Positions 14,925 through 61,998 of a stretch of 64,000 nucleotides of DNA are shown here, one piece after another. This stretch comes from Patescibacteria group bacterium (lineage in GTDB: Bacteria > Patescibacteriota > UBA1384 > CAJBMM01), in the NCBI GenBank assembly GCA_041660565.1, contig JBAZWC010000001.1, positions 430,481 to 494,480 on the forward strand, in the 5' to 3' direction. The notes beneath the pieces are model-generated. The model was given only the letters and a program-made list of their open reading frames with translations. It was not told the origin of the DNA and made no database searches. Within the stretch, counting starts at the first letter, position 1, and the number at the start of each line of letters is the position of its first letter. The translations under genes were made by a program, and so were the position numbers.

Positions 14925-16313
14925 ATGTCTGACAACATCATCCTCCTCACCGACAGCTACAAGCCAACCCACGGCCCCCAGTACCCGCCACGCACCCAGA
15001 CTATCTTCTCGTTCTACGAGAGCCGGGGCGGCCTTTTCCCTGAGACCACCTTCTTTGGCCTCCAGTACCTGATCAAGCGATATCTGCTCGGTCAAGTGGT
15101 GACCGAGGAGAAGATCGAGGAAGCCTATGAAGTTCTGGGGAGCCACTTCGGCAACTCGAATTACATGAACCGGGCTGGCTGGGAATACATCCTGAAGGCA
15201 CACGGTGGACGGTTGCCAATCCTCATCCGGGCCATACCGGAGGGGACATCGATCCCAAACCACAACGTCCTCATGACGGTGCAGAACACCGACCCCAACG
15301 GCCTGCCATGGCTCACCAACTACCTGGAGACTCTGCTCTGCCAGGTCTGGTACCCCTGCACGGTCGCCACCCAGAGCCGGGCCATGCGCCAGGAGATCCT
15401 CCGCTTCCTCGAGGAAACGGGCGATCCCAGCCAAATCGACTTCAAGCTGCATGACTTCGGTTTCCGGGGTTCCACCAGCGTGGAGTCAGCTGGTATCGGC
15501 GGGGCGGCCCACTTGGTCAACTTCAAGGGGACTGACACCCTCGAAGCCATCATGGTCGCCCGTCGTTACTACGGCGAGAACATGGCCGGCTACTCGATCC
15601 CAGCCGCCGAGCACAGCACCATCACATCCTGGGGCAAAGAGCACGAGGCTGACGCTTACGCCAACATGCTCACGGCCTACCCCACCGGCACCGTAGCCGT
15701 AGTCTCGGACAGCTACGACGTATTCAACGCTTGTCGCTCCATCTGGGGTGGACAGCTCAAGGAGCGCGTTCTGGCCCGAGACGGCGTCCTCGTCATTCGC
15801 CCCGACAGCGGTAACCCCCCGGAAGTGGTCACCCAGGTCCTCGATATTCTCGGGCAGACCTTCGGCTTCACCACCAACGACAAGCAGTACAGGGTACTGC
15901 ACCCAAAGGTCCGGGTCATTCAGGGCGACGGCATCGACTACGCCATGATCACCCAGATCCTGACCGCTATGCGGCAGGCGGGATGGTCAGCTGATAATCT
16001 CGCCTTCGGCTCCGGCGGCGGTCTGCTCCAGAAGGTCAACCGAGACACCCAGCGTTTCGCCTTCAAGTGCTCAGCCGCTCAGATCGACGGAACCTGGCGC
16101 GATGTGATGAAGGACCCTGTCACTGATCCCGGCAAGCGTTCCAAGGCGGGCCATCTGGCCCTTGTACGCAACAGCGCCGGCGACTGGAAGACCATGCGCG
16201 AGTCAGACGCCGAAGCCATGGGATTCTCCAACCAACTAGTCCCTGTCTTCAAAGACGGCGCCCTATTGGTTGATTACAACTTCCAGTCCATTCGAGATCG
16301 CGCCGCGATGTAA
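14925..16313 (+). CDS. nadV: nicotinamide phosphoribosyltransferase (NAMPT/NadV)
   Basis: LLTDSYKPTH signature and full-length similarity to NadV. GC-rich. Starts 16 nt after the nadM stop. Confidence 0.85.
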   Translation: MSDNIILLTDSYKPTHGPQYPPRTQTIFSFYESRGGLFPETTFFGLQYLIKRYLLGQVVTEEKIEEAYEVLGSHFGNSNYMNRAGWEYILKAHGGRLPILIRAIPEGTSIPNHNVLMTVQNTDPNGLPWLTNYLETLLCQVWYPCTVATQSRAMRQEILRFLEETGDPSQIDFKLHDFGFRGSTSVESAGIGGAAHLVNFKGTDTLEAIMVARRYYGENMAGYSIPAAEHSTITSWGKEHEADAYANMLTAYPTGTVAVVSDSYDVFNACRSIWGGQLKERVLARDGVLVIRPDSGNPPEVVTQVLDILGQTFGFTTNDKQYRVLHPKVRVIQGDGIDYAMITQILTAMRQAGWSADNLAFGSGGGLLQKVNRDTQRFAFKCSAAQIDGTWRDVMKDPVTDPGKRSKAGHLALVRNSAGDWKTMRESDAEAMGFSNQLVPVFKDGALLVDYNFQSIRDRAAM

Positions 16314-16379
16314 GTCGCAGCACCTTCCGGCCTCCTATCGGGGGCCGGTTTTTCTGTAAATTTTTTTATTAGCTCGTTT

Positions 16380-16790
16380 ATGATGATTTTTTGGTATAGT
16401 GGGGGTATGGAAAAATATGAACTATGGTTCCGATTAGCGTATCGGGACATAATTTTAACCAAAAAAATGACCGCTGCCGTGCGTCCGGGAGATCGTCGTG
16501 CGCCAAATAACAAAGGAACTAGCATTGGCGAAAATGTGATTATTCGGGTGATGAAACTACCGGGTAATGAAGCTGAAAACATCAACCCGATATTTACAGA
16601 TGATAATATTCCTGCCAAAATAACGGCGATTGAGGTTAAGCGCTTGCAAGATGTTACGCCAGCGGATCTGATCGGATGTTCGGCAGATTGTTCGGATTGG
16701 CACGGCGTGGCAAACCAGCTAAGCTTAATCTACAACCAGGTATTTACCGGGCCCGAAGAAGTCAGCATCGTCCGGTTCGAATACACATAG
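16380..16790 (+). CDS. hypothetical protein (possible ASCH/PUA-like small domain)
   Basis: ORF only. The likely true start is at MEKYELW (16407). Confidence 0.3.
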   Translation: MMIFWYSGGMEKYELWFRLAYRDIILTKKMTAAVRPGDRRAPNNKGTSIGENVIIRVMKLPGNEAENINPIFTDDNIPAKITAIEVKRLQDVTPADLIGCSADCSDWHGVANQLSLIYNQVFTGPEEVSIVRFEYT

Positions 16791-16800
16791 GAGGACAGCC

Positions 16801-17790
16801 ATGATAATTCAGAAGTTGATCGATTCTAAGATGCTGACAGTTGCGTCAAAAGCGCAAGATAATCCGCCTAGTCTAGAAGGGTTGGATTTCTTCGCGGTTG
16901 GATACGCAGCCAAGGATTACCCCGCCCAGACGCCTCGGCTGTGGAACGCGCTTTACGCGCAATTTGGGCTGAATGTCCGCAATATCCGACTGATTGGATC
17001 ACCGGAGGTAGCGGGTGATGTATTCGATGCCTATCGGAATGACGACCGGTTTCTGGGCGGCGACGTCGGCGCTGGCATCAAGGACAAAGCATGGGTGATT
17101 GTCGATCAAATTGACCCGCTTGCCCGTGCAATGCAAGCGATCAACGTGGTAGTGCGAACAGACCACAAACTGGTCGGCTACAATACCGACGGCCATGGAT
17201 ATGTGGCCGGCTTGCAACAGGTAATGGATGCGACAGACAAAACCATCCTGATCTTAGGGGGTGGCGGCACCGCCAATGCCATCGCCTTTGCCGCAGCGGC
17301 CGCCAGGATGAAGCTGATCATCCTCAACCGCACCGTCAGCAAAGCAAATGACCTAGCCGTGCGAGTTAACCAGTTCTGCAACAAAGCGGTAGCGGTTTCA
17401 GGTGGGCGTGAGATGATATCAGCCGAAGCGCCGAAAGCCGACGTGATCGTTAGCGTAATCGACGATCCGCATTCACCGCTCGACCAATTCTCGGCACTGG
17501 GCGAGATTGAATTACCGGCAACACCAGACAGTCTGTCTCGAAACGTCGCCACCGCTACCAAAGTAATGCGAACGCTAAAGCCGGGTGTGCTGATTTCGGA
17601 TGTTGCGTTACGTGACAAGCCAACCGCAACGTTGCAGTTAGCAGCCAGCACCGGGCTAAAGACACAGGATGGCCGGCCGATGGTGCTAGAACAGGCCATT
17701 CTGGCGTTTTGGCTCGTCAACCAGCGGCTGCTCAAACCCCGCCGCATTACCCAAGCTCAAGTTGCAAAGGCGATGCGCCAAATCGCCTAA
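16801..17790 (+). CDS. shikimate/quinate 5-dehydrogenase family protein (AroE-like)
   Basis: GGDVGAGIKDK, NTDGHG, ILILGGGGTANAIAFA and ILNRTVSKANDLA blocks match AroE catalytic and Rossmann motifs. Confidence 0.65.
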   Translation: MIIQKLIDSKMLTVASKAQDNPPSLEGLDFFAVGYAAKDYPAQTPRLWNALYAQFGLNVRNIRLIGSPEVAGDVFDAYRNDDRFLGGDVGAGIKDKAWVIVDQIDPLARAMQAINVVVRTDHKLVGYNTDGHGYVAGLQQVMDATDKTILILGGGGTANAIAFAAAAARMKLIILNRTVSKANDLAVRVNQFCNKAVAVSGGREMISAEAPKADVIVSVIDDPHSPLDQFSALGEIELPATPDSLSRNVATATKVMRTLKPGVLISDVALRDKPTATLQLAASTGLKTQDGRPMVLEQAILAFWLVNQRLLKPRRITQAQVAKAMRQIA

Positions 17791-17807
17791 GGCAAATCCG
17801 TCAACCT

Positions 17808-17842
17808 AAGCCCTGCACCTTCGGGTGCAGGGCTATTTTTTT
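17808..17842 (+). terminator. intrinsic terminator
   Basis: AAGCCCTGCACC-ttcg-GGTGCAGGGCT followed by a T7 run. Confidence 0.75.
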
Positions 17843-17922
17843 ACATTAACATTGACAGAGACTGGTATAAATGATATTTTATGACCAAGATCGTCCACTA
17901 CGTATCAAGGGGGTGAGTTGCG

Positions 17923-18177
17923 ATGCAAGTACTTGGGAAGGTTGTAAGCATCCAGGAACCCGTTGCCCTGTTGTCCGGACAGGAATCTGACGGGGTTACG
18001 ATCCTATCGGGCACGGAGTGCTTTGACGTCCTGTTCCCCAAGGGAGCGGTAACTCCGCACATGGTTGGATCGCTAATCGTGTTCGAGATGGCCGAGGAGA
18101 TCATGGTCGCCCGATATGGCAGCCAGCCAAGATGCGTCGTGAGCATCGACCCGCCCGACGCGACACTCGGACACTAG
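17923..18177 (+). CDS. hypothetical small protein (GC-rich)
   Basis: 84 aa. RBS aagggggtgag. Followed by the hairpin CAGGCGCTGTG..CACAGCGCCTG. Confidence 0.4.
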   Translation: MQVLGKVVSIQEPVALLSGQESDGVTILSGTECFDVLFPKGAVTPHMVGSLIVFEMAEEIMVARYGSQPRCVVSIDPPDATLGH

Positions 18178-18283
18178 CCATACCGCCGAACCAGGCGCTG
18201 TGCAAACCGCACAGCGCCTGAAATTGTACTTGACAGCAAAAGTGTAGGGTATATAACGGATATATAAGAAAGAAAGGATATAT

Positions 18284-18694
18284 ATGGAAAAAACACATAT
18301 CGTCCCCAAAATCTATGGATACGTGGTCTGCTTGGTAGCAGTAATTGTTACTTTGGTGGCACTGGGAAATATTGTTAACGCGATATTTGATCGCGCCAAT
18401 CCAACCAGCGTAAGCGACTACAGATACAACTTGCAAAGTCATGATGTTTCTTCGTTTGCTGCGTACAAAGCGGACTATCAATCTAACCTGAACTCAGCTG
18501 AAAACAAAACCGCCACCACAGTAGTTTTGTCTGACGACCAATTGAGAACAAATTATGAGGCTGCCCGCACCAGTCAAATTGATGCGGTAAAACTGGGCAC
18601 AGTCAAAACAATTACCGTTTTTAGCATTCTGCTGGTTGTAGCGGTAGGATTGTTCGCCAGTCACTGGATCTGGTTACGTAAATTTGAGAAATAG
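18284..18694 (+). CDS. hypothetical membrane protein (one N-terminal and one C-terminal TM)
   Basis: ORF with an aaaggatatat RBS and a hydrophobic N-terminus. Confidence 0.45.
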   Translation: MEKTHIVPKIYGYVVCLVAVIVTLVALGNIVNAIFDRANPTSVSDYRYNLQSHDVSSFAAYKADYQSNLNSAENKTATTVVLSDDQLRTNYEAARTSQIDAVKLGTVKTITVFSILLVVAVGLFASHWIWLRKFEK

Positions 18695-18791
18695 TTTCTA
18701 ACTCAATTTGAGATAAAATAACGCGCTAGCCTAGCGCGTTATTTTGTTATGGTAAAAAAGTGAGAATAACTAAAATTTATGTTATAATATA

Positions 18792-18884
18792 GCCAATGCC
18801 GATATAGCTCCCTCCTTCGCCAAGGCTTCGGAAGGGCAAGCAGCTGGTTAGTACTGCAATAAGTGCTTTCGCCTGCCCCTCGTA
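18792..18884 (+). pseudogene. tRNA-like fragment / partial duplicate of the tRNA-Thr 5' end with an inserted hairpin
   Basis: gccaatgccgatatagctc (18792-18810) duplicates gccaatgccgacatagctc (18885-18903). A D-arm-like agctggttagtactgca and an anticodon-stem-like tgctttcg are present. The T-arm is absent. Confidence 0.5.
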
Positions 18885-18890
18885 GCCAAT

Positions 18891-18966
18891 GCCGACATAG
18901 CTCAGCTGGTAGAGCAGTGCTTTCGTAAAGCAAAGGTCATCGGTTCGATTCCGATTGTCGGCTCCA
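18891..18966 (+). tRNA. tRNA-Thr (anticodon CGT)
   Basis: GCCGACATAGCTCAGCTGGTAGAGCAGTGCTttcgtaaAGCAAAGGTCATCGGTTCGATTCCGATTGTCGGCTCCA. Confidence 0.8.
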
Positions 18967-19050
18967 GATTTTTGCAATCTATCGCCGCGTTTTCAACGAC
19001 CGGATCCAGATTTTTGCAATCTATCGCCGCGTTTTCAACGACCGGCTCCA
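18967..19050 (+). repeat. 2 x 42-bp tandem repeat abutting the tRNA-Thr 3' end, each unit ending in a tRNA-end-like CGG(A/C)TCCA
   Basis: gatttttgcaatctatcgccgcgttttcaacgaccggatcca repeated twice. The tRNA itself ends ..gtcggctcca. Confidence 0.7.
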
Positions 19051-19085
19051 AAAAAATTCTCCGCCAGGGAGAATTTTTGTTTGTC
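19051..19085. terminator. bidirectional intrinsic terminator
   Basis: aaaaaaaTTCTCCgccaGGGAGAAttttt, with T/A runs on both sides. Confidence 0.65.
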
Positions 19086-19305
19086 TTAAATATTAGTAGA
19101 CCGGTCCCGAAAGCGATGCCATCGGGACCGGGTTGTGCACGACCATCGCGCCCGTTGCCTAACCAAGGGATGGAAAGCGCTCTGCTTCCCAAGCCCCGCC
19201 GTGACGGGTTAGGTAACGAGCGGGGTCGCTGGTGTTACGAGGACCTTCATGTGAGTCCTCCTGGGTGAGCGCGGTGGTGGCTTTGGACATCTAGCCTGGC
19301 GCTCA
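19086..19305 (-). ncRNA. candidate GC-rich structured small RNA (about 220 nt), unknown class
   Basis: Minus-strand promoter TTGACA (19334-19339), 17 nt, TATTTT (19311-19316). GC-rich hairpins (GACCGGTCCCGA..TCGGGACCGG and GCCTAACC..GGTTAGG). Ends at the bidirectional terminator. Contains a 12-codon ORF with a perfect AGGAGG SD (MKVLVTPATPLVT). Confidence 0.35.
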
Positions 19306-19514
19306 TCAGTAAAATATCAAAAACGATTTTCGCTGTCAACAAAAAATAGAGCGCACGCTGATTTGCCAAATCCGTTGCCACCCTTAAATATCCCTAGTAA
19401 TCCTTAGCGATTCGAAAATCGCCTCTCCATTTTTAAATAAATTCGAGATTCCAAAAGTTTAAAAATTAAAAAACTATTTGACATTTGTCATTAGAAATTA
19501 GTCATTAGACATTT

Positions 19515-19546
19515 TCTATATAGATTCCGGATCAAGTCCGGAATGA
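19515..19546. repeat. GTCATTCC hairpin repeat (reverse orientation) abutting the gap stop codon
   Basis: tatagATTCCGGatcaagtCCGGAATgacat. Confidence 0.6.
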
Positions 19547-19548
19547 CA

Positions 19549-20556
19549 TCAGAGTTTTTGACCCACCAGTACTGCTTCTTCAACCAATCTGTTGGCATAG
19601 CCCCATTCGTTGTCGTACCACGCCACCACTTTAACCAAATCGCCATCTACCACCTGCGTTAACGACAGATCAACAATCGACGAAAAGTGGCTCCCAATAA
19701 AGTCCGACGATACCAGTGGCTCTTCGGTATAGGACAAAATCCCCTCATAGCGCTTCATTTTATCCACCGCTTTTTTGAACACCTCGTTTACCTGCTTGAC
19801 GGTGGTTTTTTTCTTCAACAAAAAGGTAAAATCAGCCAATGACACCACCGAAGTTGGTACCCGAATTGCCAATCCATCAAACAAGCCCTTTAGTTCCGGC
19901 ACTACTTGATGAGCAGCGCTGGCGGCTCCGGTAGATGTTGGCACAATGTTCATACCAGCACTTCTGGCGCGGCGCAAATCTTTGTGCGGCCCGTCTTGCA
20001 GATTTTGGTCGGCAGTGTACGAGTGGATAGTGGTCATCATCGCCTTTTTCACTCCAAACTCGGACACAATAATTTGGGCAACCGGTGTAATACAGTTGGT
20101 GGTGCATGAAGCATTTGAAATAATTTCTTCTTTATTGTATTTGTTGTCGTTGACCCCCATCACCAGCGTAACCGCACCGTCTCCCTTTGCCGGAGCAGAG
20201 ATAATTACTCGCTTTGCTCCTGCACTAATATGCGCATGGGCGTCTTTTGGATCGGTAAATCGCCCGGTGCACTCTAGCACAATATCGACATTTTCTTTTT
20301 TCCACGGCAATGCTTTGGGATCTTTTTCGGCGTGAACTTTAATCTTGTGACCATCGACCACCAAATTGTCCCCTTCAACGCCAATATTGGCATCGTATTT
20401 GCCATAGTTTGTATCATATGATAGTAGATGCGCCAGCGTGGCAGGATCGGTTAGATCATTAACCGAGGCGATGTTAAGCATTGGTTTGGTAAGGGCAATT
20501 TTCAAGGCGTTTCGCCCAATTCGACCAAATCCATTTATCGCGATATTGATAGACAT
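19549..20556 (-). CDS. gap: glyceraldehyde-3-phosphate dehydrogenase
   Basis: INGFGRIGR NAD-binding N-terminus, active site SCTTNC, full-length GAPDH similarity. Confidence 0.95.
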   Translation of the reverse strand: MSINIAINGFGRIGRNALKIALTKPMLNIASVNDLTDPATLAHLLSYDTNYGKYDANIGVEGDNLVVDGHKIKVHAEKDPKALPWKKENVDIVLECTGRFTDPKDAHAHISAGAKRVIISAPAKGDGAVTLVMGVNDNKYNKEEIISNASCTTNCITPVAQIIVSEFGVKKAMMTTIHSYTADQNLQDGPHKDLRRARSAGMNIVPTSTGAASAAHQVVPELKGLFDGLAIRVPTSVVSLADFTFLLKKKTTVKQVNEVFKKAVDKMKRYEGILSYTEEPLVSSDFIGSHFSSIVDLSLTQVVDGDLVKVVAWYDNEWGYANRLVEEAVLVGQKL

Positions 20557-25842: not shown

Positions 25843-25910
25843 GTCATCCCCGCCCCGCTAAGCGGGGCTAAGGAACGCTTAGCGTCCCGACATTTTATTC
25901 GGGGATCCAG
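25843..25910. repeat. GTCATCCC/ACGCTTAGCGTCCC hairpin module
   Basis: CCCCGCcccgctaaGCGGGG and the ACGCTTAGCGT palindrome. The related GGGACGCTAAGCGTCCC recurs at 30775-30810. Confidence 0.5.
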
Positions 25911-30688: not shown

Positions 30689-30808
30689 ATAAATTCAGAA
30701 GATGGAAGATAGAGGATGGAGGATGGACCGAATATTCTATCTTCTATTTTCCATTTTCTATCCTCCAGATTGGTGGGACGCTAAGCGTCCCGTTTACCAC
30801 GCTTAGCG

Positions 30809-61503: not shown

Positions 61504-61998
61504 GTAGTCTAAATCTTTTCGGATCATCGCCCCTAACGGGGAGGAAAGTCCGGGCACCTGATAAGCGTTGTACTGACGCATCTGCTAGCATTAGTTAGCA
61601 GCGAAGTCTAGCTGCCCCGTCATTCGACAGGGCAAGGGAATAGTGCAACAGAAAATACACAGCCAGCCAATGCGTTGCATTGGAAATTCGAAATTCTAAA
61701 TTCCAATTTATAAACATAAGGAAATTTGTTTATAGGCTGGATTCCCGCCTGCGCGGGAATGACGCCTCGAGTTTCTAGTGCAGCGCGTCGGGGGCAAAGG
61801 TGAAAACGTGTGGTAAGAGCGCACGCGCTTTAGCAGCAATGCTAATTTGTGAAAACCCTGCATGGTGCAAGTCTGGTGGACCATTCGCTTCAATTGTGCT
61901 TATCCAAGAAGCGGGTTTGGCCCAGACGCGTAGATAGATGATGGTCAAGTATTTGTTTACAAATACTACAGAACCCGGCTTATAGAAACGGTTTAGAC
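61504..61998 (+). ncRNA. rnpB: RNase P RNA (bacterial type A) with an enlarged P12 region
   Basis: Promoter -10 TATAAT at 61494-61499. P4 5' strand GGAGGAAAGTCCGGGC (61539-61554). AGTGCAACAGAAA. GGTAAGAGCGCAC (61815-61827). P4 3' strand ACAGAACCCGGCTTA (61965-61979). P1 pairing GTCTAAA/TTTAGAC. Terminator AATGACGCtgttAGCGTCATT plus T-run at 62001-62030. Confidence 0.85.
61739..61763. repeat. GTCATTCC-family hairpin inside the rnpB P12 expansion
   Basis: ggATTCCCGCctgcGCGGGAATgac, preceded by an about 55-nt AT-rich insert (aaattcgaaattctaaattccaatttataaacataaggaaatttgtttatag). Confidence 0.7.

Follow-up and report, generated by a model that had tools for sequence, protein, structure and literature searches.

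A candidate structured small RNA gene between gapA and tRNA-Thr in a Patescibacteria genome

Between the gapA and tRNA-Thr genes of a Patescibacteria group bacterium (GCA_041660565.1; 941,055 bp in eight contigs, completeness rated 100%) lies a segment of high guanine-plus-cytosine (GC) content that is preceded by a putative promoter and followed by a putative terminator on the minus strand. Here we ask what this segment, hereafter the element, encodes. It was analysed within a window of 64,000 nucleotides (nt), positions 430481-494480 of contig C1; coordinates given without a contig name are those of the window. An earlier note, made from the letters of this DNA, had described a structured element running from promoter to terminator on the minus strand, and this proposal gained support from the enrichment of the promoter class, the fold statistics, and the absence of a coding signal. 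At a probability of roughly 0.55, we consider the element to be an independently transcribed, non-coding small RNA (sRNA) gene of ~255 nt, restricted to its lineage and equipped with its own promoter and terminator.

Promoter, terminator and predicted fold of the element

Reading on the minus strand from gapA, an AT-rich stretch of 210 nt is followed by the promoter, a GC-rich core of 206 nt, an AU-rich linker, and a hairpin terminator. Within this order, the features of the element are as follows; ORF denotes open reading frame and SD the Shine-Dalgarno sequence.

19311-19339, minus strand: sigma-70-type promoter, with -35 box TTGACA (19339-19334), 17-nt spacer, extended -10 TG (19319-19318), and -10 box TATTTT (19316-19311)
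19267-19304, minus strand: predicted hairpin domain H1, a 6-bp outer helix (19304-19299 / 19272-19267) around a 4-bp helix (19296-19293 / 19282-19279)
19239-19262, minus strand: predicted hairpin H2 with SD, in which AGGAGG (19262-19257) is half buried in a 7-bp hairpin (19260-19254 / 19245-19239) and AUG (19250-19248) lies in the loop
19209-19250, minus strand: 13-codon ORF MKVLVTPATPLVT with UAA stop, which reaches across the 3' arm of H2 into the 5' strand of H3 and probably arose by chance
19139-19229, minus strand: predicted hairpin domain H3, an interrupted long stem of 6+8+7 bp with a branched tip
19101-19131, minus strand: predicted hairpin domain H4, a perfect 10-bp hairpin CCGGUCCCGA/UCGGGACCGG, extended by 3 bp
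19079-19100, minus strand: AU-rich linker before the terminator, largely unpaired in the predicted folds
19050-19078, both strands: bidirectional intrinsic terminator with GC core UUCUCC/GGAGAA and A5/T5 flanks

The promoter has the layout TTGACA-N14-TG-N-TATTTT, matches the consensus at 10 of 12 positions, and carries the TG of an extended -10 element, so that the TTGACA-17-TATTTT promoter of the earlier note was borne out; transcription is predicted to start at ~19306-19303. The two strands of the genome together hold 27 sites of the form TTGACA-N14-TG-N-TA-NNN-T, whereas 20 local shuffles averaged 0.8 and the reversed genome had 1. The transfer-messenger RNA (tmRNA) gene has one of these sites ahead of it, and 22 of the 27, including the site of the element, have an ORF of at least 75 amino acids (aa) starting within 250 nt; the ORF counted for the element is a 96-aa ORF with a TTG start, which itself has no relatives. 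By these counts, this arrangement is a real promoter form of the organism. Since the form is enriched ~30-fold, the site at 19339 is very probably active and the element likely transcribed.

The terminator hairpin has an 11-bp stem (19052-19078). Our terminator scan listed it on the plus strand only, where it is followed by TTTTTGTTTGT; on the minus strand, UUCUCC-CUGGC-GGAGAA followed by U7 (19056-19050) was read directly from the letters. This hairpin was the sole terminator-like site in 18600-19700 and lies ~250 nt past the promoter. The bidirectional terminator and the position beside tRNA-Thr were both described correctly by the earlier note. Its length of ~220 nt suits the GC-rich core (~206-220 nt), whereas the predicted transcript, from ~19304 to ~19050, amounts to ~255 nt. 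Since gapA has no other canonical terminator behind it, the stretch may at the same time serve as the 3' end of its mRNA.

The core (19300-19095) has a GC content of ~63%, compared with a median of 41% in crudely defined intergenic regions of at least 150 nt; in 100-nt windows, GC was 0.61-0.65 over 19100-19299 and 0.26-0.47 in the flanks. The ~62% GC and long hairpins reported earlier were thus found again, and two inverted repeats account for the arms: CCGGTCCCGA/TCGGGACCGG (10 nt, 100% complementary, 19101-19110 / 19122-19131) and CGCCCGTTGCCTAACC/GGTTAGGTAACGAGCG (16 nt, 88% complementary, 19149-19164 / 19207-19222). The minimum free energy (MFE) of the minus strand was -112 kcal/mol (z -5.38), and none of 200 dinucleotide shuffles folded as well. 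In a test with 25 shuffles, the core reached z -4.8, compared with -3.3 for RNase P RNA and -3.45 for tmRNA of the same genome (first 220 nt of each). The domains H1-H4 are MFE structures predicted from a single sequence. At the tip of H3, a 3-bp hairpin (19206-19197) stands beside an 8-bp GGGAAGC/GCUUUCC hairpin (19191-19184 / 19178-19171).

Taken together, the strong extended -10 promoter would start minus-strand transcription near 19304, and the RNA of ~255 nt would fold into four GC-rich hairpin domains followed by an AU-rich tail. Transcription would end at the hairpin-U7 terminator, which would be common to the convergent tRNA-Thr. Transcripts of gapA would probably end at the hairpin 19078-19052 too, and the element would then be laid out like an sRNA that lies within a 3' untranslated region (UTR) and has its own promoter. 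Such an RNA would presumably be made without being translated and may act as a regulatory or protein-binding RNA.

Does the transcript encode a protein instead? The core has no coding signal: its GC content by codon phase was 0.64/0.67/0.57, with no low second position, compared with a second-position GC of 0.36-0.43 in five neighbouring genes. Pfam gave no match for the 98-aa (plus strand), 96-aa (minus strand), and 43-aa (minus strand) ORFs or for the 13-codon frame read through its stop (E ≤ 10 where run), and the three ORFs had no relatives among 5.8 billion protein clusters. When the element was compared with its own genome by tblastx and blastn, only itself was returned; it is single-copy, with no paralogue found. 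A resemblance of MKVLVTPATP to the N-terminus of NAD-dependent epimerases had no support from Pfam and was rejected.

The perfect AGGAGG 6 nt ahead of AUG raises the alternative of a small-protein or leader-peptide transcript, whose product would be the 13-aa peptide read from AGGAGG-N6-AUG or the 43-aa ORF at 19290-19159, with the hairpins controlling translation. The SD is half buried in H2 and the ORF extends into H3 on its 5' strand, so that translation would compete with folding. However, the genome contains 198 AGGAGG, 53 of them with ATG 4-9 nt downstream; 40 of these start ORFs of at least 50 aa and 13, including that of the element, start shorter ORFs. The reversed genome (16/284, 5.6%) leads to an expectation of ~11 short AGGAGG+ATG ORFs, so that the 13 observed give no evidence of translation. 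The ORF of 12 codons with a textbook SD in the earlier note keeps its AGGAGG, gains one codon, and stands at chance level. In addition, there is no gene to attenuate before the terminator and beyond it only the convergent tRNA-Thr, and the 43-aa ORF lacks relatives, Pfam matches, and a codon-phase signal. We regard a peptide product as improbable. Even if the element is a non-coding sRNA gene, as we prefer, H2, together with the overlap between the ORF and H3 on its 5' strand, would enable a ribosome to remodel the RNA; the statistics can be explained without translation of the ORF.

Known RNA families and the signal recognition particle

A structured RNA with a strong promoter might also be a divergent housekeeping RNA, that is, signal recognition particle (SRP, 4.5S) RNA, 6S RNA, or similar. 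In favour of this, Rfam detects neither an SRP RNA nor a 6S RNA in the genome: the small SRP (RF00169), large SRP (RF01854), and 6S (RF00013) models gave no match. Furthermore, GGGAAGCAG in the stretch loosely resembles the conserved SRP domain IV sequence, a likeness that the earlier note had raised and called unconvincing.

The models did not support this identity. At gathering score over the whole window, no Rfam family matched at the element. At E ≤ 10 with lax filters over 18950-19450, only noise was obtained (MIR162_2, S15 leader, and RFPL3-AS1, E 2.7-4.5), with no match to the SRP, 6S, or tmRNA models that the earlier note had proposed as a check. In small SRP RNA, the 5' and 3' ends pair to close one long hairpin that carries domain IV at its tip. 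For the element, only 0.02-0.09 pairs were expected to join the first 40 nt to the last 60 nt, indicating that there is no closing stem or rod. In addition, GGGAAGC pairs locally with GCUUUCC in the 8-bp hairpin and is not preceded by a GNRA tetraloop. With the SRP RNAs, the element thus shares only a short GGAAGCAG-like string and GC-rich hairpin character, and it differs from them in having no model match, in having several domains and unpaired ends rather than one long hairpin, and in carrying the motif in a local stem. It resembles 6S RNA in its length of ~200-250 nt, in its strong promoter, and in being encoded by a gene of its own; it differs by lacking a model match, a closing stem, a central bubble, and a rod shape.

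The genuine tmRNA (RF00023, 137 bits) lies at C1:393603-393994 and the class A RNase P RNA (RF00010, 125.5 bits) at 61511-61998, both away from the element, and neither model matched at 19050-19340; both identities were rejected. The RNase P RNA is 488 nt long, compared with 367 positions in the model, and contains a large insertion at ~61660-61790.

The protein partners of SRP RNA were not found either. In the genome, the Ffh M domain (PF02978) was absent from the results (0/1), PF00448 (SRP54 GTPase) gave nothing over the cut-off, with weak hits to PilB/GspE, ABC, Mur-ligase, adenylate-kinase, and PilT proteins, and the ftsY model TIGR00064 gave nothing over the cut-off, whereas SecY was detected at 337 bits with the same tool. 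The GTPase arrangement G1...DTAGR...TKxD was absent from the six-frame translation of the genome. An SRP RNA elsewhere in the genome, which the earlier note had named as evidence that would refute it, was not found, and at E ≤ 1 the small and large models each matched 0 of 26 genomes (this one and 25 relatives). On these grounds, the SRP identity was rejected, as was the 6S identity, which had neither a model match nor end pairing. Moreover, a housekeeping RNA would be conserved, and the element was found in no relative. A divergent housekeeping RNA is thus very improbable, and within the reach of the tools used, the SRP, 6S, and tmRNA readings are closed for the element.

Closing the SRP reading exposed a lack of detectable SRP RNA, Ffh, and FtsY in this genome, despite the presence of SecY, and none was detected in up to 120 other genomes of the phylum. 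PF02978 was found in 0 of 41 genomes of the relatives set and 0 of 121 of the phylum set (this genome being in both), and PF00448 over the cut-off in 0 of 61 of the phylum set. In named control genomes, PF02978 and PF00448 were detected in 14 of 14, the small SRP RNA models in 12-13 of 14, and the large in 7-11 of 14. The GTPase motif arrangement was not found in the complete genome G153 (785,860 bp), by a regular expression that had no positive control. Our literature searches found no statement on SRP loss in Patescibacteria, also called the candidate phyla radiation. If real and phylum-wide, this blank would be remarkable and far more interesting than the element; it needs a check against named, curated genomes before it is believed.

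Relatives, repeats and the gapA junction

The main competitor of the sRNA gene is a non-functional relic: GC-rich DNA that is foreign, decayed, or derived from repeats and stayed behind at the rearranged junction of tRNA-Thr and gapA, transcribed or merely promoter-like, and useless to the cell. The absence of recognizable relatives is in its favour. BLAST found the element in 0 of 60 relatives. A covariance model derived from a self-alignment of the element (R1; 219 positions, 68 pairs) found it in 0 of 150 other genomes of the class, among them 4 relatives of the order (0/4 again when searched separately), with only the element itself in the 151. A single-sequence covariance model is weak, and the result should be read as 'not found' rather than 'absent'; the order is represented by five genomes, each from its own genus, and the lack of relatives is therefore partly a limit of sampling.

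Further searches were also negative. BLAST against phage and plasmid DNA gave no match to the element, and R1 returned only the element itself among 11 loci. Metagenome contigs fetched through GAPDH reached at best 64% identity, which indicates that no close kin was among them. A 19-mer of the element, GGGAAGCAGAGCGCTTTCC, had 6 hits in 185,579 species genomes (Bacteroides, clostridial, and Zixibacteria metagenome-assembled genomes); R1 fitted only 19-29 nt of these, and they were rejected as chance. Literature searches found no paper on the element, and the accessible parts of PMC8155191, PMC10768705, PMC8321541, and PMC7203096 contain nothing bearing on the claim.

Screens of GC-rich intergenic regions are the subject of PMC6429828 and PMC8723152. 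Our own genome-wide screen of this kind used a crude ORF caller, by which the element itself was swallowed in a spurious ORF, and serves as context only. Other strongly folded GC-rich stretches lie at C1:158935-159154 (z -8.5, a repeat cluster) and C1:305592-305780 (z -5.7), and neither matched Rfam at E ≤ 0.1. The intergenic stretches C2:99883-100229, C1:305497-305780, and C2:362105-362431 are likewise GC-rich and strongly folded, with no Rfam match at E ≤ 0.1. The first of them has its own TTGACA...TATAAT promoter and hairpin-U terminator and may be another sRNA gene.

The genome also tolerates dispersed GC-rich hairpin modules at ~30 loci, which suits a relic. Composite elements are ~200-250 nt long, with ~4 full copies and many partial ones. 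The modules CCCCGCTNAGCGGGG (12 copies) and GGRACGCTNAGCGTYCC (17 copies) are joined by two paired GAGGAG-type hairpins, CCTTCTCCTC and CCCTCTCCTC; across the genome, the modules of these repeats number 12-27 copies. Examples are found at C1:110903-111080, C1:158962-159093, and C2:345159-345374, and within the window at ~25853-25889 and ~30775-30791. Module B (GGRACGCTNAGCGTYCC) has 9 copies in G004, the closest sampled relative, and was found in 0 of 79 other genomes of the class. This module family looks REP/BOX-like. The element resembles these repeats in being intergenic and GC-rich with near-perfect hairpins; in contrast, it is single-copy and shares no significant alignment with them. 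Against eight repeat or similar loci, including three full composite copies, its best z was 3.9 on a local score of 30, with the rest at most 3.0, and a 15-nt near-match to one repeat locus was at chance level by our own estimate.

The neighbours of the element are the following two genes.

18891-18966, plus strand: tRNA-Thr(CGU), convergent with the element, with a 42-nt tandem duplication (18959-19042) directly after it
19549-20556, minus strand: gapA (GAPDH, 335 aa), upstream of the element on the same strand and without a canonical terminator of its own before it

The order FBA-pfkB-gapA is kept in 5 of 5 genomes of the family, and the sequence downstream of gapA varies. In G001, tRNA-Thr adjoins gapA convergently with zero spacer and no counterpart of the element; G002 has other ORFs there, and in G003 the contig stops 158 nt beyond gapA. 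In G004, whose GAPDH is 86% identical, gapA is followed by a homologue of a 136-aa membrane protein and then by tRNA-Thr, all co-directional; compared with G004, the membrane-protein gene and tRNA-Thr of the window are inverted relative to gapA.

Several duplications surround tRNA-Thr. Its 5' half is partly duplicated at 18790-18903, where a 21-nt direct repeat (18790-18810 / 18883-18903) brackets 72 nt; these contain a hairpin module, CCTTCG...CTTCGGAAGG, along with a copy of the D-arm/anticodon-arm region of tRNA-Thr that has diverged. In G004, too, a partial copy of tRNA-Thr lies close to the gene itself. The two units of the 42-nt tandem duplication are 98% identical and begin with the final 8 nt of tRNA-Thr (CGGCTCCA / CGGATCCA), and a third copy of CGGCTCCA stands immediately before the terminator. 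At ~1 kb from the element, a GC-rich gene block (14925-18177) contains genes for an NAMPT-type phosphoribosyltransferase, with a third-position GC of 0.79, and for a shikimate-dehydrogenase-like protein, together with two ORFs that belong to no family. This block has no counterpart beside tRNA-Thr in G004 and may be acquired DNA.

On the other side, 19488-19561 covers the 3' end of gapA and a hairpin just downstream, TTCCGGA-CTTG-ATCCGGAA. At 80% likeness, its summed depth in metagenome contigs was 540-2100, compared with ~15-17 for its neighbours, so that something similar is carried by many other organisms in the sample.

Two possible traces of insertion or inversion were rejected. The 9-nt direct repeat CTTAAATAT flanking 19094-19382 was considered as a target-site duplication, but 650 nt should contain ~1 match of this kind by chance, and no terminal inverted repeats were seen. 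A 12-nt inverted match between the promoter of the element and a promoter at 18230, considered as an inversion scar, consists only of the -35 box and 6 nt.

Because the layout downstream of gapA is variable, tRNA-Thr is accompanied by duplications, and the GC-rich block has no counterpart in G004, the element is young or a recent acquisition and occupies a site prone to rearrangement. The same evidence speaks for a relic: in each genome of the family that has sufficient sequence there, the junction downstream of gapA is a different one, tRNA-Thr is flanked by the partial 5' duplication and the tandem duplication, and GC-rich genes without a G004 counterpart lie 1 kb off. On the other side, the promoter form is ~30-fold over chance and a canonical terminator follows at the right distance. 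The core is unlike the dispersed repeats, phage or plasmid DNA, and any protein, and it shows no residual codon periodicity. A genome of 0.94 Mb would also be under pressure to drop 290 nt of useless DNA. We consider the relic doubtful, although it has a substantial claim.

Several observations weigh against an sRNA gene. The locus of G004 has no counterpart of the element, and a rearrangement hot spot suits junk as well as young genes. GC-rich, hairpin-laden intergenic stretches, dispersed repeats included, occur elsewhere in the genome, so that GC-rich structure alone is not special. The MFE of the plus strand was -114.7 kcal/mol (z -3.99), 56 of ~87 pairs are common to both strands, and G-U counts are indecisive; thermodynamics thus leave the strand unfixed, and the strand assignment rests on the promoter and the U-tract. 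Neither BLAST nor the covariance model found a relative in which compensatory base changes might show. Finally, none of 24 listed sequencing runs was usable RNA; the sole run with the stretch is DNA of a groundwater metagenome, in which it occurs on a 531-nt contig with 0 differences.

Significance and comparison with known systems

On its own, the sRNA gene that we favour would be one more orphan candidate in an uncultivated organism, whose value, as an annotation or a future target for metatranscriptomes or Northern blots, would be modest. In a lineage in which SRP RNA, 6S RNA, and SRP protein were not detected, an abundant structured RNA of any kind would deserve study. A bolder interpretation, which we regard as speculative and unlikely, would make the element the founding member of a new, genus-restricted class of highly structured RNAs of ~255 nt in an ultra-small bacterium, transcribed from a promoter of their own within the 3' region of gapA, in which the SD-AUG hairpin and the 13-codon ORF couple translation to refolding of H3, as a dual-function or ribosome-sensing RNA.

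Dual-function sRNAs that encode a small peptide include SgrS/SgrT and SR1/SR1P, and SR1P reportedly binds GapA. The element resembles them as a structured sRNA candidate with a short SD-led ORF; in contrast, its ORF has 13 codons and is at chance level, no sequence similarity is claimed, and the adjacency to gapA is a coincidence.

A closer likeness is to MicL and DapZ of enterobacteria, which are reportedly independently transcribed sRNA genes in or behind a 3' UTR, with a terminator in common with the mRNA. Unlike this class, the element has no relatives, known chaperone, or target; it is also much more GC-rich and heavily folded than typical base-pairing sRNAs. With this class it would share its own sigma-70-type promoter after a same-strand gene, a structured RNA of ~250 nt, an AU-rich stretch, and a shared Rho-independent terminator.

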